From contig CM068748.1 of NCBI GenBank assembly GCA_035084275.1, positions 11,284,001 to 11,348,000 on the forward strand: 64,000 bases of DNA, in the 5' to 3' direction. Position numbers and translations under genes: made by a program. This document shows positions 14,241-52,297 of this stretch, piece after piece. Position 1 is the first letter of the stretch. Every line of letters begins with the position of its first letter. The DNA comes from Hydrolagus colliei (taxonomy: Eukaryota). The notes under the pieces were generated by a model. That model had not been told where the DNA came from. It made no database searches and worked only from the letters and a program-made list of their open reading frames with translations.

Positions 14241-14514
14241 GTAAGGGACCGACTGATTCAATTTGCCTTATGGCTTATGCATGCCACGTTGTTTCAAAGC
14301 TGATCATAAATTTATGCATGCCATTATAACATGCTAATAAATGGTGACTCCAGGTTGGTTTTGTGGAATGTGTTCCTCTGCGCTTTCTTCCTTGGAAACA
14401 GATGATTGTTGAAATAGTTGCAATTACAAACTCTGGTTGTATGTTGCGTAGTCTATGAATTGGATGGAAATAGCCTGTTGCACACACTTACGTGGCCCTT
14501 TCTCTAACTTTCAG

Positions 14515-14568
14515 CTGCTGCTGGGCCATCACCAGAGAGGGACGGGGAAGTGACAATGGTGATTCCAG
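14515..14568 (+). CDS. PSD: 54-nt symmetric exon (CCWAITREGRGSDNGDS), phase 2 to 2
   Basis: ccctttctctaactttcag| and CAG|gtgaga; open in the required frame. Confidence 0.7.
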
Positions 14569-30663: not shown

Positions 30664-30927
<264 letters not shown>

Positions 30928-31407: not shown

Positions 31408-32671
31408 TGAAATGTCCTAATTGATCAACTGGTTCATGAGTTTACCAAGTTAATAGAATTTAGGAGATCTGGGGTGAAGCAGTCCCACTGTGGGGGGGGA
31501 GTAACACTATGGATGCCTATTAAATAAAATACAACACAGTGACCCTTCCTTGAAAAGGTTATTACTTCCGAAGATTAATCCTGCTCATGTGCTCATGGAC
31601 TGCCTAATGTTGCATGTACTGTGGGATGGGCTTGAAGACAGTAACGGTTGGTTGAACTGTAAATAATGGTTTGTGGTTCGAAATTGGAGGGTAATTGTAC
31701 CCAAATGAACTTCTAACAAAAAGCACTTTTAATTATTAAGTAATTACAATTACAATTATTCATAAGGTTTCTGCAAAGGAAGAACATGTTGTGCTCTCTT
31801 TAATTCTGTACATATAATACAAATCATTCCCTTCCTGAATTGGAAAGTCAGTGATAGCTGCAGGTGAATTGAAATAGACTGCGGTATATGACTGCAAGAC
31901 TATGTTTCCTGGGACCATCCTGTACAGTTAGCACAGTGACCTTGCTGGTATTGAGTAAATTGGGAACAGTTTTGCCTCTGGGTCAGATTACTGCACTTCC
32001 ACATCCCAGGTCAGGAGTTGAGCCCATTGTCTGGGTTAAAAGCCTTTTGCAGTGCTGAGAGCGAGTATTGTATTGTTGGAGACAGACAAGACATTAAACT
32101 GAGGTTCAGTCTGCCTTTCAGATTATGATCTTTAACTAATTAAAATAAATATTATCATACTTACATTTGAAATATCACCTTTCACTTCGAGGAAACATCT
32201 CAAAGTGCTTCAAAAGAAGTACATGTACTCCAAAATTGTAATGACTATGTATGTTGTAGGTAAATGTTGTACTGTATTTGGAAAGAGAAGAGAGTTTGAT
32301 GCAGATTGGTTACTGACATTATGCTTTTTGTGGGGCTAGATGTGAGACATTTAGCTCTTGCAATTGGCGACAAAAACTAAACTTTACAGTACAGTAATTG
32401 TCTGCTCAAAGCTTGAGACGTTCAACATATCAGACACTGTATCATACACAAGGATTGCTATATTACTGTAAAAAGAAGCATTCAGTCAAAGTCTGTGCGT
32501 TGCTGTTTTGGGGACAATAGTCATAGGAACGTTTGTGTTACTGCAGATTGCAGTGATGCTGCACACAGCATTTCAGCACTGATCCACACATATGTGGAAT
32601 GACTTAAAATTTGAAGCCACATTTTTAAGTATCAAAAAACGTCCAAATGTTGTGGTGCTTTTAATCACTAA

Positions 32672-32875
<204 letters not shown>

Positions 32876-35800
32876 TAATTCTCCCTCAAGATTTTTTTTT
32901 TTTAAAAAGTCCAATTACCGACATACAGTAATGACATCAGAAACTAGAAGCAAACTGAGTTGAGAGATTTGAGCAGTATTGTTGTTACCAATTGTAATGT
33001 CCGCCTCCAGCATTCAGAGTATGTTATTAGACTGCTGATTTACCAGGTGTTCCACTCTGCTTTCCTAAATGTGTTGGTTCTAAATGGAAAGCTACAATTA
33101 GATCTCTTAGCACTAGAAGCAAGCGTAAGATCAGCAGAGACCTAGGACAAGCTTATTATGAAGCGCTCCGAGACTTTGTTCGGCATGAAGAGAGTTGTGT
33201 AAATGCAAGTTGTTGTTGTTGTTGTTGTTATTTCCTCTTTTTAAAAAAGGAGATCTGCCCTTATTATAGGGGTGCTGCCCCTACCTGCCCTTTCATCTCT
33301 TGTAAAGAAACAACTGGCTTTTGTTGGCTACTTTTATGCAGTATCGGAGCTGGTTTTTGGCCACCAATCATGATGCTACATGTTGGTAGGCCCAGCCTGG
33401 CACCGTAGCCCACCAACATTGTACTTTATAAGTAGGCATGATGTTCTAATGTCTTTTGTTCCTTCAAATATTTCATGGGTTGCATTAAAGAAGTTGTTTT
33501 GTGGCAAAGCATTGTTAAATTGAAACACACCGTATGTCCTTGAGGACAGGAGAGGATGGAGGGGGTGAATCATGTTGTTGCCAACCACATGTCACAGGTT
33601 TGTGTAATGGAGAATTTGGACTGCATCATGGCTGAGCTAATAATGATAAAACAAAAGAATTGCTGTCTGCTTAATTGCCTTTTAGCAAACAAACGGCGGC
33701 CAAAAATAAATGAACAAATCCCATTTGTGCTCCCAGATGTATTATGTGTCCTCTAAACAAGATTGCTGTTCACAAGATGTGCCAGGTTCCCAGAGGACTT
33801 CCAAAAGACTGTTAGCATTATGAAGAACAGTATCATGAATCCTATGTTTGTGTGTGACTGCTACATTATGGAATTGGTAGATGTCAGAGTTTTAACATCA
33901 AAATATATTACTGTATTATATTGTATAACAATAGGAAAATTCCATATATCACCTAGGAAAGGATCTGTGCAAATCAGTTATGAGTAGAGAAGCACAAATC
34001 TTGATCGATTAGCTTCTAATAAATCAGACAATATTCCCCATTCCAGTGAGTTTTTAACAGTGAGGTTTGTCTTCAGTTCAAACATAACTAGTGGGATGAT
34101 GTACAAGATGATCTCTCCAATTCTATTTCTGAATACAGGCTGCTTGTTTAGATAGACAGGTTTAGGCCTAATACTACTACAAGTAATCAATCTGAATCTG
34201 TCCTTGATTGATTCTGTTCAGTAAATTGTATCTGTGCTTGAACTTTCATTCCTTAAGGATTGCACCATTTCTTATAATGATCTCTAAACTATTCAGTCCC
34301 AATAATTGGCTTTGGATACAAAGACCAGTTATGATGGAAATAATTATTTAAGATTTTGTTTTGCATCATTCATTGACCTTCAACAGATTATTGTATAGAC
34401 ATTATTGTGCAGCTGCAATAGAGGGAGAATCCAAGTGTTTCCAAATGTTATTCATTGTCCATCTTATTGGGAGAAGAGGAAGAAATCTAGGTGTCTGAAT
34501 TGCATCAGGTAAAGTGAACCAAAGCAATGTTGGAGGGAAGAGTTTATAATAATTGATTTTGGGGCCACTGTTCATGGGGGACACCTCATGATTGACCCAT
34601 TCAACGTTTGGTGACAAATTGTAGTCCAATGTGGACTTTCCACCAATCTAGACACTGACGTAACGTGAGCACAAATGACACTTACAGCTCCGGAACAGTG
34701 GTGGTAATTAAAGGGAGAACATCGTCTGCTGTGCTGTGGGCTATCCCTTAAGGCTGTGAGCTTGTTTTTGTGCCATTGTTCAATGAAGAAAGCTAATATT
34801 AGCATGCCACTCCCTTATTCTCCCATAGCTCTGCCCAGAGGTGGCCTCCTGCATGGTGTACAGTGATGGTTCGTACACTAATAGACGAGAATCGAATCCC
34901 TGATGGGACTCATCTTTTCTTGTTTTGCAAAGGTAGTATTTTACTTCAAATAAGAGCGCACTCGGTGGGCTGATGGTGTAAAGCAAGCAAAAATCAATAG
35001 ATGAGCTTGAAAACTTTCTGTATTAGTAGGAACAGCAGACATGTTTTTATGACTCATTTGCGTTTCATTCAGGGCAACCAGAAATAGGGTAAATGATTAA
35101 CCTATTATGTATGTTCCAGAGACCACTGTATATATTTGCTCACTCTCTGAGATGTAATGAAATGCTGTCTGATTTTTCCAGAGCTGGTATCTTGCTCTAC
35201 AGCTGGTCATAGTTTATCGTGCCACTGATTAAGCCACATACTGTGGAGAACTGCATTGCGCAAAACAATGTTTCCATTGGAAGCAACCCTCTCTCCACTA
35301 CCTCCCTGAGATCATTTTCAATATTGACACCTGTTGAATGTTGACTTGGAAAATTTTAGTTTTGGATGTCAGGTCTGCCTTTGGTCAACAAAATTGTCAA
35401 AAACGAAACATAAAGCTGCAAACCCACTAAACGTCTGCAAATCCAAGTGCATGAGCTGATTTCACAGACCTTTGGATTGAGAATATTCATGTGATGCTTT
35501 TTGTAATGATAATCTTTGCATTAATATAGTGCCTTATCATGTTGCTGAGATATCTCAAAGTACTTCACAGAATTTACTGAAAAGGGTTGTTACTGCATAT
35601 TTTAATAATCATAATACTTATAATTATTAAGTATTTTGTGGAAGGTGGTCCAGTATTTTTGAAACACTGTGACCTTCTGAGACAGACAGTAGAACCGGGA
35701 ATGCAGTGCTAAGGCAACAACATTGCCTTATTTCTACTTCAGTGCTGTCATTGAAGTCGAGGCTGGCTTTGGTGTAGCGGTTTTGGTGAGAGCATGGCAT

Positions 35801-36507
35801 TTATTTCTCTGTGTTGTATAACAACAACTTGCATTTATACAGTGCACTTGGCATAGGGTAGCATCCTGGAGCACTATCCCGCGTGAATAACAAAACTATG
35901 TGCGACTTATTAAAAACTATACAAAACGATATGCGGCTCTAGAAATGTAATTTTGTTGTGTTGTTGTTATTGAGGTTCAGTGGAATACACCCCCATGTTT
36001 CTCTATTGCACATAGTGCCTTTGAGGTCCTGACAGTGTGTGAAGCACCAAAGCACAATTGACATTCATTTAATGTGACACTGCAACTTTAAGAATGCGGC
36101 CGGCCACAAGTATCACTGAATAAGACCTGGCAGAGATTCAGCGCATCTCGATGCAGCACTCACTACTCTTCCCTGTTCAGAAGCAACAAGCTGCTCTGAT
36201 GATTTGCTGAACTAGGAGAGCATGTTAATTGCATTCCTGTCGACATCACTGCAGCAGGTTGCTATTGGTTGTCACAAAGAATAAAAATGTTCGAGGCAGT
36301 GCCCCTCAGAGGGTGACTGGAGCTGGAGCACTAGTACTGGTTTGCAAGGAAGGAGTGGGGGGGGTGTCCAGCATTACTGAGGTGCAAACCGATCCATTCT
36401 TTGGTATACCAGTGCAGGAGTATCTGTCATTTTTTATCCTGTTAGCTCAGGAGCTAGATTTGAAATTTTAAGAGTCAGAAATTGTTTTTTTTCAAAAAAA
36501 AGAAAAG

Positions 36508-36663
36508 ATGATTGGAGTGAATAGTGTACAGTCCACCGGGCATTTGCGCTCACACTTACGTTCAGTGTCGAGTGTACGATATAGTGTGGATTCGGTTCGA
36601 TACGGCCTGCCACAACGACCAAGATCTCTGAGGCCAGTTGTAAAACTCCAGAATAAACAGAAG
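36508..36663 (+). CDS. PSD: Alternative first coding exon of the short Sec7-less isoform (EFA6As-type), MIGVNSVQSTGHLRS...KLQNKQK, phase 0
   Basis: aaagATG, 52 open codons, consensus donor AAG|gtaaga in phase with exon 38446. The peptide resembles the recalled mammalian short-isoform N-terminus MIGVNSIHSS...SVRYG...PQRSRSLKPV. Confidence 0.85.
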
Positions 36664-36680
36664 GTAAGATCCCGAGCAGA

Positions 36681-36800
36681 ATAATGATTCTTGCATTTGA
36701 TGGAGCGCCTTATCACGTCCTCGAGACGTCTCAAAGCACTTCACAGAATATGCTGGAAAGTGAGTTGACTGTATATTTTGTAGGCAAAATATGCAACTCA
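36681..36800 (-). mobile_element. SINE 3' part
   Basis: Reverse complement of the SINE tail (cttgcatttga...agcgccttatcacgtcc...aaagcacttcacagaata). Confidence 0.8.
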
Positions 36801-37349
36801 CACGTACAGCTCCTCCTTTTCTTTATTTTCTTCATTTGTAACCTGTCCTGCTGTCTTTGATTCTAAATCTATATTTGGCAATCAAAATAGTCTCTTATTT
36901 CTTTTTGTTACATCGGCTAGAAGTTGAATGGGTAAACTCTTATCATACTGTGATTTTGAATTTGGTGCATTGCAGTATGAAGTTTGAATTATATTTTGTT
37001 TCCTTTCTTCGGTTGTATTAATTGCTACAGAAATATCATCACAGTAACAAGGGACATGTTGAATGCAGGATGCTGCCTATCAGCTACAATGTTGTAATTT
37101 CATCACTGGCATTTAATCGTTGGGTTCAGTGGATCTTGTGTGGAGTACTAGAACAAAGCCCAGTCGTTTGTATGTTGTCTGAACTCTGGTAGTCAGTGCT
37201 GGTGACAGGTTCACTCTCAGCACTATGATGTTTATATCCGAGATTTTATCGGAAGTAAAACATCTTCCTCAGTACAGCATGATGTAGTGTTTATCCAGGA
37301 GCTGCAGAGTTAGGTTAAAGTAATGTGGATTATTTAACATGGATCATAT

Positions 37350-37582
37350 AATAATAATCCATTTTGATATAGCGCTTTTCACATCGTATTGACATCTCAA
37401 AGTGCTTCACAGAATATACTGTAAAGTGAATTGACGTATATTTGTGGACGAAACACGGCAGCCAATTGCTTACAGCAGTCTCCCACAAACAGTCGTGGAT
37501 TGAAATGACCAATTTATTATTATTGTGGGGTTTTTTGGAGGGATTATTATTAGGTGTGTGGAGTAAGGAAACTTGCCCAAGG
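37350..37582 (-). mobile_element. SINE, 5'-truncated
   Basis: Reverse complement of the 15004-family body (cccacaaacagtcgtggattgaaatgacc; aaggaaacttgcccaagg). Confidence 0.85.
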
Positions 37583-37779
37583 TCAGGATTGATGATTGTA
37601 GCTGAGCATCTGAAAGTTACAAGGATTTAAGGATTTTCTTGTGCTTTGTATGTCTGGAACTACATTCTATTTAATCATTAAAATATATAAAGAAAGTTAT
37701 CCCCAGGATTGTGTTATGAGAGTTAATTAAAAATGGAGATATCATCCTGTGAAGTTCAGTAGATTTATTGTCATATGCA

Positions 37780-37916
37780 AAAACTCAAAATGCTGCAGAT
37801 GCTGGCAATCTGAAACAAAACCAGAAATCGCTGGGAACACTCAGCAAGTCAGGCAGCATCTATGGAGAAAGGAAAGTGAGTCAATGTTTCGGGTCCACGA
37901 CCCTTCGCCAGTTCTG
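37780..37916 (-). mobile_element. Penelope-like element terminal repeat fragment with a hammerhead-like motif
   Basis: Reverse complement of 58885-59015; minus strand reads CTGGCGA-AGGGTC-GTG-GACCC-GAAAC. Confidence 0.7.
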
Positions 37917-38445
37917 ACAATCTACCCAGATTTTTGTTTTATTATCCTATGCACCTTGCAGAAGTTTTCATTCTCCCTCTACCTCTACTGAACTGCTGAC
38001 TCACACTGAGGTATTGACCTTCATAATCTGAGACAAAGTTTTATTTTCTTCCCACCAATACTGACCCATGTTAAAGATAAAACATCACTAATCAGGTTCA
38101 CCACATTGTTGGTCTATGTGCCTTTGCGTAACAGTTGGGCAAGACAATCTAATCAATGAATTGTGGAGTGTGGGTGCAGAGGTCTGTTCTGTCAGTCTTT
38201 GCCAGTGTTGCATCAATGGGCAGAACGCATCATGCCATCAGGTAGCCTTCACATTCCCCCTCCTTTCAGATGACTAAAATCTGAACCCATCCCCTGTCTA
38301 AATCCAGCATTCCCTGAATGCACGTGCAAAAATGTGATACTTCCTATTAGGTAGAAGATAATAATAACCAAGCAATATTACGTACAAAATCCTGTTTTTT
38401 TATTATCTGCTTTTTAAATGATCATTTCTCTCTGTCTCTGTGTAG

Positions 38446-38489
38446 GTTTTGTACAGCTCCATTAAGAATGAAAAGTTGCAGTGGACAAT
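38446..38489 (+). CDS. PSD: PSD exon (44 nt), VLYSSIKNEKLQWT, end of Sec7, phase 0 to 2
   Basis: ctctgtgtag| and AAT|gtaagt. Confidence 0.95.
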
Positions 38490-39149
38490 GTAAGTATGAA
38501 GCATTTGTTTTGATTATATGCTGTATTGTATAAATGGTGAATCATCCTCTACAGAATTAATCAATTTCTTAGGTCTTGCCACAATTGCCGTACATGTTCT
38601 AGTTTTTATGTCAATGCCAGGAACCTTACACAACACCTTGAAGCTCCTTCGCTTGCTGGAAAGTCAAGTATTGTTAACTTTAAAATGTCAGTGGGAGCAC
38701 ATTGATAAGACAGCCTGGTCTCTGGTGGATAAGCAGGCATAGTGGTGTTCTAGTGCTGTATTTAAATAACCTTGGATTTGCTTCCACAATGAGACTCTTG
38801 AGTAGATGTTAAGTAAAGCCCAGGTGGGATCTTCAATGCATCAATTTACTCCCTGATTCAAAAACAGCAGTGGCATCTCCCTGGAGAAAGTCATGGTCAG
38901 GGAGTGGTGAAAGTGTGGGAAGACCCAAGGAGAAAAAGTGGATGTAATTGGACATTTATTATAATAGAACACTCCCGTGGGAAAAACAAACTGATATAGT
39001 AACATAATTACACTGAAACGTGATAAACCATTTATCATAGTACAGCAATAACTAAGTGCTGACAATTTAGAAATAATTATAATGCTTGCATTTGATATGG
39101 TGACTTTCACATCAAGAGGATGCTCACAGAATACATTGCAAAACGAATT

Positions 39150-39750
39150 GACCACCTGACCAAGCCAAGGAACTTGGACATCTTGTTCAACCCTTAACTG
39201 TCCTTTCTCCCTCATATCCATACCATGACCAGCATTGCCTTCCACCACCTCCGCAACATTGCCTGTAGTTGTGTCTGCTACCACACCAGGCTCTGTGACC
39301 TCATCACTCCTCACCCGGCTCCACTGGTTCCCCATCCCTCACAGGATAGAATTCAAGATCCTTGACCTCGCCTTGCCCCCTCCTACCTCTCCGATGTGCT
39401 GACCCCCTATTAACCTATCTGCTCCCTCCATTCAGCAGGCTCTTGCATGTTCCATGTCTCCCTCCCAACCCATCCTACTATCGGTGGCCGGGCTTTCAGC
39501 CTCTCTGCTGCCACACTTTGGAACCCCATCCCACAGTCCCTTCACCTTACTCCTAATCTTGCCTCCTTCAAGGCCCAATGCAAGACCCTCCTTTTTGACT
39601 ATGCCTTCATCCAGCCCCCTGTCTCTCTGGCATCCCTCATCCCAACCCTGACCTCCCCCCATCCACTCACCCATTCTCAAGTGCTGACCCTTGATTGTTC
39701 AATGCCTTGGGACGTCCTCCCGACATGAAACGCGCTCTACAAATATAATT
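39150..39750 (+). mobile_element. L2 LINE 3' portion with internal gaps
   Basis: AFHHLRNIA, LHWFPIPHRIEFKIL, IGGRAFSLSAATLWNPIP and the L2 tail. Confidence 0.85.
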
Positions 39751-39769
39751 CCCTTTTCTTTTGGAATTT

Positions 39770-40050
39770 TGCCATAGGATGTTTAAAATCCACCTGCACC
39801 GTCAGACAGGTTTAGTATCTCATCCAACGGATGACACCTCCAAAAATACATTACCCACTCTTTCCCCCACCTCCCCCCCCACTCATCAGTACTGCATCAG
39901 AGTGTCATCTTAGACAAACAAACAAACAAAACTTACATTTATATAGCGCCTTTCACGTCGAGAGGACATCCCAAGGCGCTGAAATAGACTATGTGATTCT
40001 AAGTCCCAACATGGGACTTGAACCCATAACCTTCTGATTCAGAGGCAAGG
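39770..40050 (-). mobile_element. DeuSINE-like remnant interrupted by a short L2 tail (about 39917-39983)
   Basis: Similar to 22138-22305 (gtatctcatccaacggatgacacctc; gggacttgaacccataaccttctgattcagaggcaag). Confidence 0.6.
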
Positions 40051-41519
40051 CTGTCAACTTCATTATATAAAACAGAGTGATCATAGCTGAATATATATAT
40101 CACATAATCCAAAACTATACATTGTCATCCTCATGACTCATCACCCAGAGGAGAGCACTGAACAGCTAAATACATAACTGCCTTTTCTAATTTCACAGCC
40201 TCCTCCCCCTGTCTCCCTTGCTCTGAGAGAATTCCCTTAGGGTACCTCAGTGGATACTTCCTTGTTTCCATTTTGACCTAACTGCCTTTAAACTACCCAC
40301 TGCTTTCTTCCCTTTTTTCCACATTTGTGCCCCTCATTCATTTTATATCTATTATTTTTTGGAGTGCGCATATCAGATTAAAGCAAGCAAAAAGTACCAG
40401 ATCTTAGTAATTGTCTTGGGCCTCCCTCCCTTGGAATTATTAACAGATTTAACAGCTTCAAATAATAGGGTCAATTTAGTAACGCAATACTAATTAAATG
40501 GATTTCTGTTACTGCAAAAAAGGACAAGTCTTTCACCTCTTAAGTAGTCTGAAAACAAATTTAAATAGAAGTATTTTACACCATTTGTTTTTTCTTGCAT
40601 AAGTATCAGTGAAATTACTAAACCAACTACAACAAAATAGATTTGTGTAGCCCATTTCACGCATTTCAGGAAGACGATTGCTCTTGAACTGACATTTGAA
40701 AAAAAATGCAATTAATAACAGTTCACTCTATTCGCCTTGAAAACATGACATTGAGTTCCATCCCTTTTATCAAGTATTGAGTCCAGATACTATTTTGGTT
40801 GGTGCTGGTTCCTTCCACAATGGCTGGGGATGGGCTATACAACTTGTCATTGCAGGGCAAGGAAGATGAAGGAGAGAATGGGGCAGAAGACAGGAGATAA
40901 TGGGTTAAAGAGGTGTTAATGTTGTAAAACAAAAGTGCGGGCGAGAGTGGAGCTATAAAAGCATACGTTCTTTTTTATCCTGCTATAGTCTTTCTCATTT
41001 TACATAAGGGATTGTTCTGCACAAATGCTTCTGATTCTCCAAAGGTCATTGAGCAAATCCCCCAGATTTTCATTCATCTTTGCCTCTCCACAACACCACT
41101 CTATTCCTTTCCTCACAGATAACATTTGTACATTGCAGCAGTGTAGGATTATCATGACCAGGAGAGTACACCTACAGCTAGCAGTCTAATCGTGTTCATA
41201 ACCAGTTATTTGTGAATGAAACGCTTAAGTGTTTAACACTTTAGTTTTGGAGGGGGAGGGAAACACTTTGATTGCTGCCGATGGGCTTCACTTGAAGTTT
41301 TGTTGAATAAAGTTGTTTGTTGCTGATGAGAAAGGTTGTTGCATTCATGAGCTGTGAGCTCTGAATTGTAGTTGTGAGAAAGACAAAATTGATTGGTGAA
41401 TGAGGTCCCATCCATTTTATATATTGACCTTTAAATGAAGTGGAACTCAACTGGTCGTTCCATCATTGTGCATGTGAATATGTAGGCATACACAATGGTC
41501 ACCTCTTGTATGGACTACC

Positions 41520-41715
41520 CTAGCTCCTTCGCTCCCAACCCTTTTGACTCATCTCCTCCTTTCCCATCTTCAGATTGCGCCTGAAAATCGTTCTCTTCAA
41601 CCGCGCTTACGGTCACCTTCGTTTCCCCCTGGCTCGGCCTCGGGCTCCGCCACTGTGAAGCTCTGAGATGCCGCCCGATGTGGAGGGCAATATATCAATG
41701 CAAGTTGTTGTTGTT
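41520..41715 (+). mobile_element. L2 LINE 3' end with (GTT)n tail
   Basis: Reverse-complement similarity to 24593-24780. Confidence 0.7.
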
Positions 41716-44700
41716 GGTGCTAAGTCATTCTGCTTTACCATCCTAATAGGGAAATGAGCACGTTAAACAAATTGTATAACAAATCGTGTGTTAGATTAAA
41801 AAACTACAGGTGGTTTCCAGTATTGATTCTCAATCATTTGGATACCAGAAACTTTGGCACTTGACTTTTTGTTTTTATTTTACCTTTTTGGTAAATCATA
41901 TTTCACCATGAAATCAGCAAACTCCATGCGTCTGCTGTAGTGACGTGTGGAGACCATTTTGAATCCTGACTCTCATTATCAAGGCACTGTAACCCTTCCC
42001 TTCAAAATTACCCTTCAAAATGTAAATTGTTTCATTAACCTTCATTCTCCTTCTTAAGACAAATGTCCACTGTTCTCGGTGGCTGTTAATGCCTAATTAT
42101 CTGGCAGGATTTTCAAGGTCGGGCCGTTGACAATGATATTTTCCAGGGAGAACAAAAATTGCAGTGATGTAAATTGGAAATCAACCAAAATAAATCAAAG
42201 CAGGTATGTTTCGAAGGGAGTCAGAAAGGCTGCATTCACTGATTTACAACAAAAATAAAACACACAGAAATGGGAAAGTTCTCTCTTTCTTGGAAAGTGT
42301 TCCATTTCACAACACTTAACCTACTTCAGTAGGAGAGCACCAAATAAAGACTCCTCGAGCAACCCAAGAATTACTACTTGTGATGGGCCTGTTTCATCCT
42401 TGTATGGCACACTGGTGAATGTGCCATATCCAAGAACCAAAATGCCTGATGCCTATTATTGTGTACATAAGTGAAAACTCAGCTTTTCATTTTTGGTCAT
42501 GAAGTGTAGCGACATCACACCTAGACACGTTTTCATTTTACAGCTCAGTTTTTGCGGTTTTATACAACATTTACACTTGCACATCTTTTATGCTGAAGGA
42601 ATTGCAATGATGCAGCACTGTTCAGGACCCAACAGTAGCTTGTGATGTCAAGGTGATTCTGAGCTGAATGCTGCAGACTGATTAACAGCTGCTGAGACAA
42701 GAGCATTAATGTGGAAAACTAGTCTCAGGAATGGCTTTATCGAGGCAACACCATCAGTAACAGCACGGCTGCTTATTATTCTAATGATTATGTTAACAGT
42801 AGTTCTTCGTTGCCGGAATAATAGCTGATAGCGTTCCAGCCGTGGTCTGTTCTCTCTTGGCTGAATAACACTTCATGGTGCAATTACACATCTTCTCCTG
42901 TGCACAATTACAGAAGCAGATGTGCTGCAAAATACTCTGTGGAATGTGTATTGGGTATTAAGTCAACACTCATAACCTGCGGGAGATGGAGGAGGTAGAT
43001 TATTTTCATTTTAAAGTGGAAATTATAATTACCAGTGCACGCAACGGAATAGGATGGAGTCTCCAAAGTAGTGTTAGTGAGCCAAGTGCACAGCTAGGAC
43101 AGCTTGTTTACTAGATATTATTTGCTTTCTTTATTATGTCACATATCAACTTTAATTCCTATTCTAGTCCCTGTCCCTTCCTCCCCAAACACCACCAAAA
43201 AGAAGCAAGCGTTGAATGTTTTACTGAGAGCTGATTAGCCCCAAGAGGGCTTTCAGCCAGATAACTACTTTAATCCCATGTCTTGGCAGATTCCAAGTAT
43301 CAAACACTGGCATGATTTAAGGTAATAGTTTGATCTGGTCCCTACAGTAGTTTGACCAACTCAAATTATAAACATCATCCTAATTGGCCACAAACCTGAT
43401 ATTGGAGCCTCTGTAAATGTATTGGGAACTGGTTCAAATAGACTTGATTCTCAGCCAAATCTAGATTGAGAAATTGAATGCAGAATGAAAATAAACTAAC
43501 CTAAAGCAAAAACTGTGTAAAGTGAAATTTAGAATATAAGCAAAAGAGGAATAGACATAAAGGAACCAAAAAGCAGAGAGAGACAATGTGAAAGTCAAAC
43601 TTTTATAACCTTCTCCTTGCATCCCAAATTGACAAAAATGCATTTTAGCAGCAAAAGGTTAATGTTGTGTAGAGCTATGTCTGACATTTGGGTAGCTTTA
43701 TTACTGGGATAAAAAGTGACACCTTTGCGTGCAACCTAGAAATTTAATGACAACTGTCTTATAAAGCCAGGGGCATGGAGGGAGCTATATAAGTGTAAGT
43801 TGGTATGCAAAACTATCAATACTGTATATCAATATGGCATAAATCGTTTCAAGAAACTTTACATTTCTTGAGGATACTGACTTTTGACTCACTAGATGGA
43901 TAACTGGCTGCCTAACACATTTAATTGGGATGTGGTGCAGAATAGTCATTGAGGAGATTTGCCCAGATAATCTGTATGGGCAAATCTATACAGAAAAATA
44001 TGGTGTTCTGTCATTGTAGGACAGTTTATTTGCTTGCATGTTTAAATAAAGCTTACGGTAATGACTGATATAATGGTCTGTTACAGAATTCAGTCCCAAC
44101 ACACTGTATTCTCTCCTAATTTTGATGAAGCAGTCTTTTTCTGGCTGTTGACCCACAGCACTTTACAGTTTTTCCTGTGAGGTGTTTGGTAACTCCATCT
44201 TGATATGAAAGGTGCCCCACCAACTGCAAGGATTATTATTATGTGGAAATGGATGGTATGAATCAGGAATCTTAGTTTGAAATTTGGTTATCTGAGGCTA
44301 GGCATTTTCTTAGAAAAATACAGTCACACACTTTGCAGTAAATCTTGTGAAGTGCATTGAGATGTACTGATTTGCAAAGCACTATATCAAATGTGTGGGT
44401 TGTTACTCTGTTTAGCACATCCTCGTGAAGTTTTTAATTGTAGACCCTTAATAGTTATGCAATTATATAATGTCAAACACAATCTAACTGACAGAAACTT
44501 TGCTTTTATATAACATAATTGGAAAGTTAATCAGCCATTCAGTGGGTTTTCAGATTTTTTTTTAAAAAAACTTCAGCTAGTGCTGAAATAGAAATCTGTA
44601 TCTTCAAAGGTTCAAAAAGCACATATTTTAAATTAGATTTAAATTAGATACTGTTAATTGCATTGATCTCACAGCTAGTTCCCATGTGATAGTTCTTTTC

Positions 44701-45445
44701 ACATGTCTATGATTACCTGCTGGGAAGATTATTACAGCTGTGACTGCTGTGCAGGGCACGATCTATGAGCAAAACTTTTCTCATCTGAGTAAGAATGAGC
44801 AACGCAACAGCCCAGCCTGGTGCCGCATGTCCATTAAGTGTGAGCAATAATCTCAAGCCAAAATATGAAAACTCCATTAAACTTTGTTGCCGAATATACT
44901 GTCCTATTAATCAGCAGCATCAATAGCTGAGTTCATATTTTCTCGACTGTTTTCTTCCTCTGGCTGTGAACCATCCTTTTGGAGTTTAGAAGAATTTTAG
45001 ATAATAAACGGTTTCATTGGCTTATAACAGGTCCCAAAGGTGTCCCTTGAACCAATCGATAGGCGAAACACCGAAGATCATCTGATCACTCTTGTTATGT
45101 GTTGTGTTGTTACTCAGAATGAAGTGTAAAAGGTTCCCAAAACTGGTCTTGCTCGAATAAATAGATGTGTCTGTTCCCCATAAACAATTGCATTTATATT
45201 GCTTTAGTTTAAGACACTCTGTTGGGAAGGACGGCTAGGAGAATTGGTGAGTGGCCAGTTCAAGATCAGCATTAACAAAGGTCTGATTATCATGTTGAAC
45301 TCCAGCAAGAAATACATAGTAACTCTGTATTGCACAGAAGAGATCACACATTGGTACCATCTTTTCTTATCTTAAATGGTTCTTATGGTTATTGAACAAT
45401 TGATGATGTTAGTCAAGTTGACAAAATATTTTTCTTCTCATGCAG

Positions 45446-45636
45446 TAATGAGGAAGAATTGCGGAAGTCCTTGTCTGAGCTGGCAGATGACAGGTCAAAT
45501 CCCAGCTTAAAATCAATGAAAAGGATCAGCGGTGGCAGCAATCCCTTCCTCGATATCATGCAGGATCCTAAAGCAGCCACATACAAACATGGCTTTCTGG
45601 TGCGCAAGATGCATGCAGATTCTGATGGGAAGAGGA
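45446..45636 (+). CDS. PSD: PSD exon (191 nt), linker and start of PH domain (NEEELRKSL...KHGFLVRKMHADSDGKR), phase 2 to 1
   Basis: ttctcatgcag| and GGA|gtgagt. Confidence 0.96.
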
Positions 45637-46338
45637 GTGAGTGCTTGATTCATTAACTGTCTTGTTGAGTATTTTCAGAATTGAATGAAAATGAACAATG
45701 CACCTTCTGATTATAATGTTAAAGTCCAAAATATGCATGGGGAGAAATCGCACTCTGGTCCACATTTACTATTTTTAACCCAGCATTTTAGTGCAACCAG
45801 AATGGTAAAAATTCTTAAATACGTCCTTAATTTTGAAGCCAATTTTCACGAAATTCTTTTAGGAACTTCAGAAAAGTAGCTTCAAAGTAAAGACTGAATT
45901 CAATAATTAAACAAATTCGGAATATTCTAAAATGCTATGTTAATTGAATAAATCTAGTAAATATTATCTATCAATAGAATAACATAAATTTCAGCACAGA
46001 AAGAGACCATTCAGCCCATTGAGTGTATGTTTGTGCCAGGTATTTAACTGAAGATAAAACTCAAACCCAAATTTTCTAATCCCTTCTTAAATCTTTCAAT
46101 GTTAATTTTTGTTAAATATGTATTGAGTTGTTTTGTTTTCCTTCAGAATTTAATATACATGTAGTTTTTTGGGGGGACCAATGACCCTTTGAAGTCAAAA
46201 CTTAAATAAGGTATTGTACAATTGGTGATTATTTTGGTGACTATCACTTTGTCCATGAATTAAAGGTTGTCTTAACAAATCACGTATTTGAAGTGGTAGT
46301 ACCTACCAGTAGCTTGAATCTTGTTGTTTTTTCTACAG

Positions 46339-46409
46339 CTCCTCGGGGAAAGAGGGGTTGGAAAACCTTCTATGCTGTTCTGAAGGGAATGATCCTCTAT
46401 TTACAAAAG
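46339..46409 (+). CDS. PSD: PSD PH exon (71 nt), TPRGKRGWKTFYAVLKGMILYLQK, phase 1 to 0
   Basis: ttttctacag| and AAG|gtgtgt. Confidence 0.96.
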
Positions 46410-47080
46410 GTGTGTTCCCTTAAAGTGCACCCCATCCAGCATGAAGGGTGCTATATAAACGCAAGTTGTTGTTGTTATTGCTTCTCCGTCATTGTGGCCA
46501 AACAGAGTAATTTTTAAGACTGCAGATTAATGAGATCCTGTTTCTGGGCAAGGATTTGTTCTACATACCCAGCTCCAGGTGAAAAGTGAGAAAGATGATT
46601 GCCCACAAAATATACAGTGAATTAATTCAATTTGCAGGGTATTCTGTGAAGTGCTTTAAGATGCCTCAAAGATGTGATAAGGTGCTATGTCAAATGCAAG
46701 CATTATTATTATTAGTTCAATATTGGTGCCAATATTAATGGCAGGGCCTTTGCAAGGCATGGTGCCCAAGGCTCAAGACTAAGATTGGGAGCTTGTTGTA
46801 TAAGGATTCATGGATGCAAACTTAGTTTGGAAAAAACTCCTCTGATAAATGATGGATCAGTTTGCAATCTTATACTGAGCAGTTATTTAAATGCACAATT
46901 GCATCATATTCCTCCTAATCCTACTCCAGCCAAATAAGTGGAACTACAAGCTGGGGTCAATTACTCATTGATTCTTCGCATCCTATGGTTGTATATCAAC
47001 TCCACTGGGAATTTCCCTCTAACAATGTTACTGAGATAGAAATTAGTTTGGTGGATACGATAAAGGTGTAAACCAATATA

Positions 47081-47465
47081 CAGTAAAAGCCCGTTTATCC
47101 GGCACGCTCGGGGGTCGACTAATTGACTGTGCCGGGTAATCGGGTGGCAAGTTGCTGAAAAACCAACACAAAAAATTAACTTATTTTAAAACAAACTATA
47201 TTAATAATATACTAAATAGTAACGGAGTATTGTATAGCTACTTACCAATAAAGATTTCAGCACACTCAGTAAAAAATGGTTAAAAAAGCATTTTTCAACC
47301 GATCGGTAAAAACCTCCCAAGTTCGTAAGTTTAATAAGTGCATATCCGCACGCATTGCACGCATGCGCAAATTTAGCATACTCGCAATTGCTGGAATGGG
47401 AAATTGCCCCACGAGGGGGTCGAGCAATCCGGTTAATTGGGTCACGGATAAATGGGCTTTTACTA
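47081..47465 (+). mobile_element. Non-autonomous Tc1/mariner (pogo/Tigger-like) MITE, copy 1
   Basis: 21-bp TIR CAGTAAAAGCCCGTTTATCCG (2 mismatches in the right TIR), flanked by TA at 47079-80 and 47466-67. Confidence 0.9.
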
Positions 47466-47495
47466 TATTATCGTTCTGTTAGTACAGTCATGTAG

Positions 47496-47732
<237 letters not shown>

Positions 47733-48617
47733 TAAGTGACCATTCCTGGTAGACTCCAAATTATTAGCAATTTGGTTTCTCGGGACATCATTTAGGGGCA
47801 CAAGTATGATCAAAGTCCGCCTTTGTTGGCTTGAAAAATGCTGTGTTGAAATCCTGTGTTTTGGCTTGTATTTGCTGCAGCTGTGAAACTAATTCAGATC
47901 ATTTTCAACCTTCCTGTCAAAAATAAAACACTTCTATAATCTGGGTTAAGCATAAGAAACTTGCAAAAATCTATAAGAAATCACTGGATTACATTGGAGC
48001 AAACTTGTCAGTGGCATGAACTAGTAGGCATTCAGGAGGGCACAATCCAGAGCCTTAAACATTTAGGTTACACTGCAGCCAGAAGTCCATTAAACAGGAA
48101 ACAAAACATTTATATTGTTTGTCTATTGCCAAGTTTGGAAAGCATGACTGGGTTTCCCCTGATTTCCCAATATACCCCGTAATTATGATATGAAATCAGG
48201 AACTGGTTTTGGGAATCAAGTACTGGATTCAAGGAGTTGAATGATTAAAACCTAAATAGGGTCAGATTAGCATCGCCTTTTTTATTGACAAATGAAAAGG
48301 TGTGCATGCACAGTGACTCCTGCAGGTGTCTTTTTGACACTTCACCAAGATTCCAAGCGTATAGTTCTGCATATCCCGATCCTTACATATGTCCAAGAAA
48401 ACAAACTCTAGAACAATAGCACCTTCCCTTTCTCAGACCATTACCAATTACTGGGAGGCATTACTCATGTCACTATTCTGAGGTGCAGACAGGGTGTGTT
48501 ATCTTCGACTATAATCAATGGGACACTGCTTCCTGAACCTATGCTTTGTTATACTTTTGTCAGTGTGTTTGCCATTCAGAAATGCTCCTTTTTTAATGTT
48601 ACTCATTTTTACCAATT

Positions 48618-49268
<651 letters not shown>

Positions 49269-49927
49269 TAGGATAGCTGAGGCTAGGATGCACCTTGAAC
49301 CCATTTAATGCAGCATTGGGAGGATGGTAGGGTGCTTTTCTGGAAACATGGGATCATATATACTGATGAGCCTCCTTCTTTTGTGATCTTGAGGTACTGT
49401 TTTCCTATGATCCTATGCAGAATTTCATCTTAATGAATTTTGTTTGAATCCTTTAGCGAATGTAGCGATTTTGTTCTCCAATTATCCTGTTATAGCTACT
49501 GCTCAGCTACATACTCATAAATACTCACTGTTTGACATTGGATAATGTCGGTTTTCATTGACTTGTATTCATTACGCATGCAACATCTATTCAAGTTCCT
49601 CTCATATCATTTGCTGATGTAATAATCACTCACCCTCACGATATTAAATGGTGAATATATACTGTGCGCAATTGGCTGCCACAACTCGCCCACAAAACAT
49701 ACAGTCACTACACTTTACAACATATTCTGTGAAGCGCTATCAGACGTATCAATGGTGTTATAAAGCGCTATTATCAATATATGCTCCTTGGACATTAAAA
49801 ATGCAACACCACCTTCTGCTGGCCGAAACATTATGCTACAAGGGTGACCATGCCTATTGAACCAAAGGGAAGCCAGACTTTTGATGTCTTTCTTAAGAGT
49901 GCTGCAATGAGGGGCCTAAACAAAGTA

Positions 49928-50416
49928 CAGTAAAAGCCCGTTTATCCGTGACTTGATCAACCGGAACTTCCGTATAACTGTTACACAAAAAGTCCCCATC
50001 CGATTAACCGGATGTTATCCGGCACAATTGCGGTGGCGCATTTAATTAATCGATTGTCGCACAAGAGTACTTTACAGGTATTTTGGCTTGCCGCTAGTAG
50101 AGCTTTCAAGTCACGCTGCTGTTTTTTTTCCTTCGCGTGGCATCTGCCATTGCAGAAGCTATCAATAGACTGTACACCTCTACCCCAGCATCATGGCTTC
50201 AAACCAGGCATCTACCAGCAAAGGTTATTTTTAGGTGAATTTTTAGCTGAACAACAAAAGTCTGTTATTATTTAGTCTATTATTAATATAGTATGTGTTA
50301 AAATGTTAAATTTTTTTGTGTTGGGTTTTCGGCGTTGGATCCGACCAAATATCTGGCATGCCGTTTAACCGGCATTGGCCAGGTCCCGCAGGTGCCGGAT
50401 AAACGGGCTTTTACTG
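49928..50416 (-). mobile_element. MITE of the same family, copy 2, in opposite orientation
   Basis: Perfect 21-bp TIRs, TA at 49926-27 and 50417-18; its right arm is the reverse complement of the left arm of copy 1. Confidence 0.9.
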
Positions 50417-50446
50417 TACCTTATTTTCATGTTTGTATTTTTTCAG

Positions 50447-50590
50447 GGAGAACAGGTGAAGGCTCATGAAGCCAGATTGAAATCGATGGCTGTGGACCTT
50501 GCTGAGCATCAATCGTATCCTCCTGACAAGAAGGTGAAGGGCAAAGAACTGGAAGAATACAGACAGAAAAAAGATTACCTGGAGTTTGAG
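50447..50590 (+). CDS. PSD: PSD coiled-coil exon (144 nt), GEQVKAHEARLK...KDYLEFE, phase 0 to 0
   Basis: ttttttcag| and GAG|gtgaat. Confidence 0.95.
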
Positions 50591-51064
50591 GTGAATTCAC
50601 TAATTACACATATTTTGTCAGAACAAATTCATGATGCAATGAAAGCCTGATAATTAGAGCCTCCATTTAACATTTATTTAATAGTATGGTAATGCATAAA
50701 CTCATATTTTTTGATGGTATAGCTTGTCCTCCTGCCACAAGTTCTGCTGTAACCAATACAATTGCAGAATGAGTTTACTTTGCATTCATACTAATAACTG
50801 AACACATTGTCTAGAATCTGTTGTGTCCTGTTTAAATAGTCCAGGCATGGTATTCTGTATAAAGATCTATCTCTACTGATGAACAAAGTTGACCTACTGG
50901 GGCTGCAGAGACTGTAAATGTTACTTAGTGAGGCTCTGACACATGCAGGGCTTAAATAATGAGTCTGGTGGGATGATTCATACATTAGGTATCAATTTAT
51001 CTTGCTTGATCTGCATGTTGTAGGTTTTACTGCATTTAAAACTGTTTTTTTGTCTCTTCAACAG

Positions 51065-51307
51065 AATGTAAGATTCAGTACATATGTGCTGCTTCTCTGT
51101 GCAAAGCTGAAAGCTGGAACAGACGACTTGGACAAGTTTGAGGCTACCCTGTTTGACACTGTGGAGAGTGAAGGGAATGGCTTGAAGAAATCTCGCTCGA
51201 GCCCATCTCTGAACCCGGAGCAGCCGATCATCACCATCAGGGTCAAAAGAAATACCTCTGAGCGCAGAAGCTATCGACAGGCCATCAGCACCAAGCACAA
51301 GTTATAA
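51065..51307 (+). CDS. PSD: PSD last coding exon, NVRFSTYV...LKKSRSSPSL...KHKL*
   Basis: ctcttcaacag|; conserved S(R/H)SSPSL; TAA at 51305-51307. Confidence 0.94.
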   Translation, partial: NVRFSTYVLLLCAKLKAGTDDLDKFEATLFDTVESEGNGLKKSRSSPSLNPEQPIITIRVKRNTSERRSYRQAISTKHKL

Positions 51308-52291
51308 TGCACTGTTAGTGGAGCTTTGTATCAAGGCTCGCTAGCTAGTATGTAACATTCGGATACAACTTATGAATTTAGAATAGTGCCAATGGTAGCT
51401 GCTCACGTCAGTTGGAACTTTTGTGGTTCACGGCCTGCTCAGTGAATGACAGTTGAGGTTTTCTCTTGAGGTGGATGTGTATGGACAGATACCAAGACCA
51501 GGACACTGTGATGGAAGAGAAGCCCTGGTTCAAAAGATTCAATGATAGGCCTTTGGAACACAATCAGCTGCTGTGGATATGAAGACTACTGATGCTCATG
51601 CTGAGGTCTAGGAGAAGACCTGTCAAGGCTTCGACCAATTAAAGTTTTATTTATGATCCCTCATCAAAACTTTTTGGAAAGGTTTAGCTGTTCTGTTTAC
51701 AGAACAGCTGTTCTGTGAATGCTGCTGCCGTGAGAAGGCTGAGCTGCATCATGTAGCTGCATCGTGTATTTCTGTTGGCTCGATGATAGATTTTGTCTCT
51801 AACATAGCACTGAGACAGACTCACATGTTCACTGCTAAGCTTTGATGGGGCAGCTACAACTTTAGTTTTTGGTGGGACTTGCTATGCCTTTGCAACGCTT
51901 CTTGGATATTGCAACAGAAGTGACAAATTGAGCTTCAACCACCTGTACTCCCATGTACTAACTACTGAGAATCGCACTGATATGAGTGAAGATTCAATCA
52001 ATAGTCTTGTGGTGGAAAGTAATTCTCTATTTATGTTGTGTTTTGCTTTTGTTTTCCTTCCCCTTTCTCTTGCTCCTAGAACCTGCGTTTTTTTCCCTAA
52101 ATGTTAAATTATTATGAAGTAAAGGCATAGAATCAACCTAAATGCGTCTTTTATAAAACAAGATGATTAATGGCAGTATTTAAACACTAGTTACAGAATA
52201 ATTTGGATTTACATGAGACTTCTGTTCTGTTTAGTTAGGTTCACAGCCTGTATCCTCGGCAGTGCCAGTTCAGTCCTTTTAGCTTTTATGT

Positions 52292-52297
52292 AATAAA
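52292..52297 (+). terminator. Candidate polyadenylation signal (alternatives AATAAA at 54197 and 54291)
   Basis: First AATAAA I found after the stop codon, about 985 nt downstream, overlapped by TGTA. Confidence 0.5.

Follow-up and report, generated by a model that had tools for sequence, protein, structure and literature searches.

The window, by which we mean the whole 64-kb stretch of chimaera DNA analyzed here, holds a PSD gene with a probable alternative first exon, which would encode the start of a short isoform. One internal exon of the gene has 98% identity to PSD of Callorhinchus milii and 83–91% identity to PSD entries from sharks and rays. A tree built from 24 C-terminal parts made the window sister to C. 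milii PSD (100/97) inside chondrichthyan PSD (100/99) and gathered 12 PSD3 rows in a separate clade (100/100) that does not include the window. The C-terminal tree and the top matches thus confirmed the original prediction of a cartilaginous-fish PSD as host, and as judged from tree placement the organism is holocephalan-like and the host gene is PSD (EFA6A), with PSD3 excluded. The trees lacked an outgroup as well as rows for PSD2, PSD4, and jawless fishes. A Varanus protein labelled PSD2 (P0179) grouped with PSD3 and is probably misnamed; since this sole PSD2-named match falls inside PSD3, there was no sign of the alternative exon in PSD2 or PSD4. The exons of the window gene were placed by tblastn with C. 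milii and Heterodontus PSD proteins and then adjusted to splice sites (Table 1). Far upstream of these exons, 14513–14566 forms an 18-codon cassette exon, in which 17 of 18 residues are as in C. milii PSD isoform X1 and which is absent from isoform X2.

Table 1 Features of the PSD gene around the probable alternative first exon, in window positions.
Feature	Positions	Strand	Remarks
Glu of the Sec7 GETQE motif	30763..30765	+	long form only
Last Sec7 exon of the long form	32696..32785	+	upstream of the alternative exon; not in the short form
Alternative first exon, probable 5' leader	36180..36507 (5' end approximate)	+	from run X2 contigs
Alternative first exon, coding: 52 aa, basic, Ser-rich	36508..36663	+	homologous to the starts of mouse PSD isoform 2 and PSD3 short isoforms
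Splice donor GTAAGA after AAG, phase 0	36664..36669	+	
First shared exon, last ~10 residues of the Pfam Sec7 match	38446..38489	+	can follow either exon 32696–32785 (long form) or the alternative exon
Shared exon: linker, then first part of PH domain	45446..45636	+	
Shared exon: PH domain	46339..46409	+	
Shared exon: PH domain	47577..47731	+	
Shared exon: last part of PH domain, then proline-rich stretch	49034..49178	+	
Shared exon: coiled coil	50447..50590	+	helices in the mouse isoform 2 model
Final coding exon including the stop codon	51065..51307	+	

An ATG at 36508 on the plus strand opens a frame of 52 codons that runs through 36663 (156 nt). The ORF that the original prediction had described, its translation, and its donor in phase 0 (AAG followed by gtaaga) were all found as claimed. 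Because an in-frame TAA lies upstream at 36469–36471, 36508 is the earliest usable in-frame ATG. Splicing into the acceptor at 38446 keeps the reading frame open, also as predicted, and the eight-exon model obtained by joining the exons comprises 1149 nt and 382 aa with no internal stops. The GETQE motif, whose Glu we take to be the catalytic glutamate of Sec7 domains, is absent from this 382-aa model, its Glu codon lying upstream at 30763, in agreement with the claimed loss of that residue. Pfam placed Sec7 at residues 657–808 of C. milii PSD and the first shared exon begins at about residue 799, so that about 10 Sec7 residues are left in the short form. The encoded peptide has 10 K/R and 1 D/E among its 52 residues. 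The likely leader holds three short upstream ATG frames, at 36199 (3 codons), 36222 (20 codons), and 36287 (9 codons); all three stop before 36508 and could dampen translation of the short form.

No run recorded as RNA contains this stretch, and the transcript evidence came from two runs of a related organism, X1 and X2, which belong to one study, were taken as RNA by guess, and were compared with the window over 32600–52500. Both runs behave as mRNA, because single contigs span several exons from which the introns are absent. X1 shows no form but the long one, with a single contig (depth 20.2) over 32696–32785 and the shared exons. Record 7 of X2, 507 nt long and of depth 46.9, matches 36428–36661 with 28 letters left over. 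Position 36428 is letter 248 of this record, and a contig of equal depth holds 36214 at 35 letters from its end, which extends the colinearity back to about 36180; the contigs cannot fix the start itself. Record 10 of X2 carries the shared exons at depth 110.1 and reaches 48 letters upstream past 45446, a length that equals the 44-nt exon plus 4 letters common to both donor exons, as expected if the assembly graph branches 4 letters upstream of exon 38446. A joint between 36663 and 38446 that is left-shifted by two shared letters, as at three other joints, would end at 36661, and the 28 leftover letters equal 2 + 26, as a 30-letter contig overlap demands; contigs of such assemblies presumably overlap by 30 letters. 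The depths of the long exon (60.4) and the alternative exon (46.9) in X2 add up to 107 vs 110.1 for the shared exons, and intronic contigs of X1 and X2 have depths of 2.8–5. From these contig coordinates and depths in a relative's run, we indirectly infer the 36663–38446 joint in X2. The contigs of X2, but not those of X1, fit transcripts that start with this exon. Over 36428–36661, 22 of 234 letters differ from the relative (9%), compared with 4–7% in coding exons and 8–15% in intronic pieces. Contigs of X1 and X2 also continue past the stop codon (51308–52500), in X2 to at least 52500, which suggests a 3' UTR of more than 1.1 kb.

The base composition of the exon differs from that of its surroundings. 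The ORF contains 9 CpG in 156 nt (observed/expected 1.03), a count equalled or exceeded by about 1% of 156-nt windows across the 64 kb, and its CpG density is 5.8 per 100 nt vs 0 or 1–3.4 in 12 other exon stretches. The local CpG excess that had been claimed over the intron was borne out, with a ratio of 1.03 vs 0.29 and 0.40 in the flanking introns. The GC-richer stretch claimed upstream, 36090–36360, has 49% GC (top 4% of windows); most of it probably belongs to the 5' leader instead of a promoter. A CpG-island promoter was rejected, the CpG ratio of 36090–36360 being 0.37 and near that of the whole window (0.31). In run X3, possibly the window's own source, one contig spans 35937–36733 with 1 difference and 2 gaps at a depth of 45, vs 44–54 for other unique X3 contigs; because a single contig covers it at unique-contig depth, the stretch is single-copy and no assembly artefact. 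Exonization of a repeat was likewise rejected, as no repeat family of at least 30 nt overlaps the ORF (search within 32600–52500). A high-copy interspersed repeat, 36680–36785, begins 16 bases past the donor of the alternative exon and has related copies at 35521–35603 and 37375–37435 and inverted ones at 46624–46710 and 49688–49769.

The closest counterpart of the predicted protein is a mouse entry named 'Isoform 2 of PH and SEC7 domain-containing protein 1' (P0201; 393 aa; XP_006527456.1 / BAE34694.1). It carries a homologous peptide at residue 1, joined to the same exon as in the window, and Pfam found a PH domain and no Sec7 domain in it. The two starts share 60% identity over 50 columns, which upholds the likeness to a mammalian short isoform that had been claimed. 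Judging by name, length, and domain content, P0201 is probably EFA6As, the short isoform of mouse EFA6A/Psd reportedly described by Sironi et al. in 2009. The mouse isoform-2 peptide scored 106 on the ORF, and the next non-overlapping six-frame segment of the 64-kb window scored 44. Pairwise comparison of the window peptide with the PSD starts of mouse, chimp, pigeon, and snake gave scores of 105–107, and with the catshark PSD peptide a score of 83, none of which was reached by shuffled sequences (0/2000 each); the amniote and catshark comparisons still gave 0/2000 after removal of the first 8 residues. Among the matches to an exon further downstream were isoforms of pigeon PSD (392 aa) and Mobula PSD3 (377 aa), both of which begin with a related peptide, and a catshark PSD model that has it internally. 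A structure model of mouse isoform 2 (AlphaFold2, 32-row alignment) had a mean pLDDT of 48.6, with about 31 in the peptide; this low value is uninformative on disorder, because the model is poor overall and the PH domain is also partly unresolved.

Used alone as a query, the 52-aa peptide matched 0 of 122 candidates at E ≤ 10, a search whose sensitivity was too low, and it gave no usable Atlas match and no Pfam family. Three matches in the representatives library were dismissed as chance: two WD40-like repeat proteins and one unrelated-looking sequence. A profile built from five peptide rows, two of them PSD3, yielded 60 matches among 2679 candidates, 33 PSD-type and 27 PSD3-type; the PSD3 matches arise partly by construction, given those two rows. 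The peptide stands at the very beginning of 26 of the 60, followed by the same shared exon (6 PSD, 20 PSD3), and is internal before the same shared exon in 6; the remaining 28 are mostly unspliced or partial frames. The hexapeptide is present in 55 matches, of which 54 are identical over the first six residues. Among the named profile matches there was no peptide from jawless fishes, from amphibian PSD, or from ray-finned-fish PSD, and no annotated chondrichthyan PSD short isoform appeared among the database matches, which is weak evidence of absence. Apart from the shared exon, nothing in the window matched a skate entry (P0022) with an alternative N-terminus. Several entries (P0021, P0164, P0165, and P0195–P0197, also P0171, P0207, and P0210) place the exon internally or behind a long upstream frame; such internal or extended automated gene models are probably mis-annotations of a first exon.

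The related start is found in PSD3 as well. A related peptide that ends at the same junction opens PSD3 short isoforms in species ranging from rays to humans. Ray and shark entries (P0056, P0139, P0141) and a bichir entry (P0187) all have it joined to the same exon, and a cluster look-up found the peptide at residue 1 of human PSD3 entries (P0220/P0229). The MIG-starting PSD3 entries are probably EFA6D1/2s; EFA6D1s and EFA6D2s are reportedly the short isoforms of mouse EFA6D/Psd3 of Fukaya et al. (2016). Two other predicted Sec7-truncated PSD3 isoforms, P0140 and P0216, start one exon earlier and have unrelated N-termini. Given the PSD3 rows in the profile, the PSD–PSD3 claim rests on pairwise tests and the shared junction, and not on the profile matches. 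Six PSD3 starts scored 64–79 against the window peptide (0/2000 shuffles each), and without the first 8 residues the six pairs gave 0, 1, 8, 22, 26, and 47 of 2000 shuffles. PSD–PSD3 pairs that did not involve the window gave 0/2000 when whole and 1, 5, and 15 of 2000 when trimmed. In a peptide tree of 18 rows, PSD and PSD3 were split at 90/82, a value below threshold, and the window stood beside amniotes and not beside catshark, with window and catshark on long branches. Since PSD3 short isoforms share a related peptide and the junction, the exon is likely older than the PSD/PSD3 duplication; it likely arose once before that event and was kept in both genes. An origin before the split of cartilaginous and bony fishes, as originally proposed, is supported and was probably too cautious, PSD3 having a related exon. 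Vertebrate ARF GEF paralogues in general are attributed to whole-genome duplications in the accessible text of PMC6727740.

Comparison of the peptide with the PH/coiled-coil body pointed to protein-level constraint that is clear in amniotes. Identity between mouse and pigeon PSD was 83% in the peptide vs 69% in the body, and between pangolin and Heterodontus PSD3 it was 65% vs 72%. Unspliced frames of birds and mammals, compared by eye, are conserved inside the frame and differ right before the Met and right after the donor. Between window and mouse the identities were 60% and 63%, and between window and catshark PSD they were 47% and 85%. By these values, the peptide is under strong protein-level constraint in PSD of amniotes and in PSD3, and under weaker constraint in chondrichthyan PSD, where it evolves fast.

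Three other accounts of the exon were weighed against these data. That the 156-nt stretch is an in-frame cassette exon near the Sec7 end of the long protein is suggested by its symmetry (phase 0-0), by an AG directly before the ATG, and by the six gene models, among them catshark P0021, that have the peptide internally. It is nevertheless very improbable: the would-be acceptor has 6 pyrimidines in 17 positions vs 12–14 of 17 at eight true acceptors, the colinearity of X2 record 7 leaves no space for an upstream exon, and the models with an internal peptide disagree with each other on the sequence before the Met, at which 26 of the 60 matches start. The fast divergence between the chimaera and catshark peptides raises the question of whether, in cartilaginous-fish PSD, the exon is a relic in decay that is still transcribed but yields little protein of any function, its role being filled by the short form of PSD3. 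The divergence of the exon piece within the intronic range, the three upstream ATGs of the likely leader, and the lack of an annotated chondrichthyan PSD short isoform among the matches would agree with decay. We give this little credence, because the frame is open with start and donor intact in chimaera and catshark alike, the first six residues and the identity to mouse are retained, as is the CpG content, and in X2 the exon's contig has about ten times the depth of intronic contigs. Gene conversion at a later time, or convergence, could in principle account for the PSD–PSD3 likeness in place of inheritance from before the duplication. Past the first 8 residues the likeness is modest, with up to 47 of 2000 shuffles in the six pairs, and the first ten residues of the window peptide equal those of tetrapod PSD3 and differ from amniote PSD, its second half being closer to the latter. 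However, the peptide tree parts PSD from PSD3 as the body tree does, junction and phase are identical in the two genes, and both genes carry the peptide in the cartilaginous- and bony-fish lineages, which makes conversion or convergence improbable.

Our data favor the reading that the exon is the orthologue of the start exon of mouse PSD isoform 2 (EFA6As) and a likely alternative first exon, and that the predicted Sec7-less protein of 382 aa would attach to the plasma membrane and bundle actin while leaving Arf6 unactivated; we assign this reading a probability of about 0.8. Transcription would start inside the intron, with 36663 spliced to 38446, in one sample of the relative and not in the other, as suggested by contig geometry. 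By extension from mammalian work, the PH domain would bind PIP2 and the C-terminal coiled coil would bind and bundle F-actin, leading to filopodia-like protrusions and neurite branching, and the basic peptide likely contributes membrane or actin affinity or a docking site. In the accessible part of PMC6915736, the EFA6A PH domain is reported to bind PIP2 and the C-terminus to bind and bundle F-actin, and an EFA6A PH-Ct construct needs no exchange activity to form filopodia-like protrusions; that text likens the short isoform of Sironi et al. to PH-Ct and credits it with branching in PC12 cells. EFA6As and EFA6D1/2s are named as Sec7-less in the available portion of PMC6522047.

The main rival to this reading is that the short form is not an independent actin bundler but a competitor (dominant negative) of full-length EFA6A at PIP2 sites or coiled-coil partners, which would lower Arf6 activation. 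Its retention of the membrane-targeting and partner-binding parts without the catalytic core suits such a role, GEF-dead EFA6A also raises dendrite formation according to the text available from PMC6915736, and the comparable contig depth of long and short forms in X2 is a weak further point. Since, according to the same text, the C-terminus by itself can bundle actin in vitro and, when membrane-targeted, suffices for protrusions, we consider pure competition rather unlikely; competition with the long form may coexist with actin bundling. A more far-reaching proposal, which we hold to be unlikely, treats the short form as an old protein in its own right and more than a truncation. The sequence at its free N-terminus, Met-Ile-Gly-Val/Leu-Asn-Ser, which both PSD and PSD3 have retained all the way from cartilaginous fishes to mammals, would be a dedicated docking motif for a partner common to EFA6As and EFA6D-s, probably N-acetylated in the NatC class and followed by basic Arg-x-x-Ser phosphorylation switches; the exon would be older than the vertebrate genome duplications, and a 50-kDa EFA6C band would represent a third descendant. 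Met-Ile starts are listed as NatC substrates, and acetylation is said to shield from UBR ligases, in the accessible part of PMC11735805. The EFA6C band of 50 kDa is reported, and left unexplained, in the part of PMC6522047 that was available. A PSD2 with a homologous first exon would explain this EFA6C/PSD2 band, and none was among the matches.

Short isoforms of this kind are already known in mouse for both PSD and PSD3, and RefSeq predicts a PSD3 short form in three elasmobranchs. New here are a predicted PSD short form of cartilaginous fishes, to all appearances unannotated so far, and sequence-based evidence that the PSD and PSD3 exons likely have a single pre-duplication origin. We found no paper on the conservation or shared origin of these isoforms among titles and the beginnings of abstracts, and the 2009 and 2016 papers of Sironi and Fukaya may state the likeness. 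Given the known mouse isoforms and the RefSeq ray and shark PSD3 predictions, the finding is for specialists a useful footnote and not a surprise. Transcriptional noise is unlikely, because a non-catalytic isoform appears to have been kept in two paralogues since before the jawed-vertebrate radiation. The near-invariant first six residues offer a concrete target for mutation and pull-down.

Three known systems bear comparison with the short form of the chimaera gene. The EFA6A PH-Ct construct of PMC6915736 has the same PH and C-terminal coiled-coil content; constructs of this type, used to model the short isoform, are artificial and omit the conserved N-terminal peptide of 52–66 aa, whose role PH-Ct leaves unaddressed in the accessible text. 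Mobula, Hemitrygon, and Heterodontus have RefSeq-predicted short isoforms of PSD3 that are Sec7-less with PH domain and coiled coil, as in the fish PSD form, and whose starts are 39–43% identical to the window peptide and join at the same position; these isoforms differ in belonging to a paralogous gene and in the second half of the peptide, which is distinct and Ser-rich in PSD3. Mouse EFA6As differs in host, the present gene being from a cartilaginous fish, where there is no CpG island upstream of the exon and the form is known from sequence, and in peptide length (66 aa vs 52 aa). In contrast, the two are alike in the gene itself (PSD), in the N-terminal peptide, in the junction into the last Sec7 exon, and in the combination of PH domain and coiled coil without the Sec7 core, the fish model having 382 aa and the mouse protein 393 aa.
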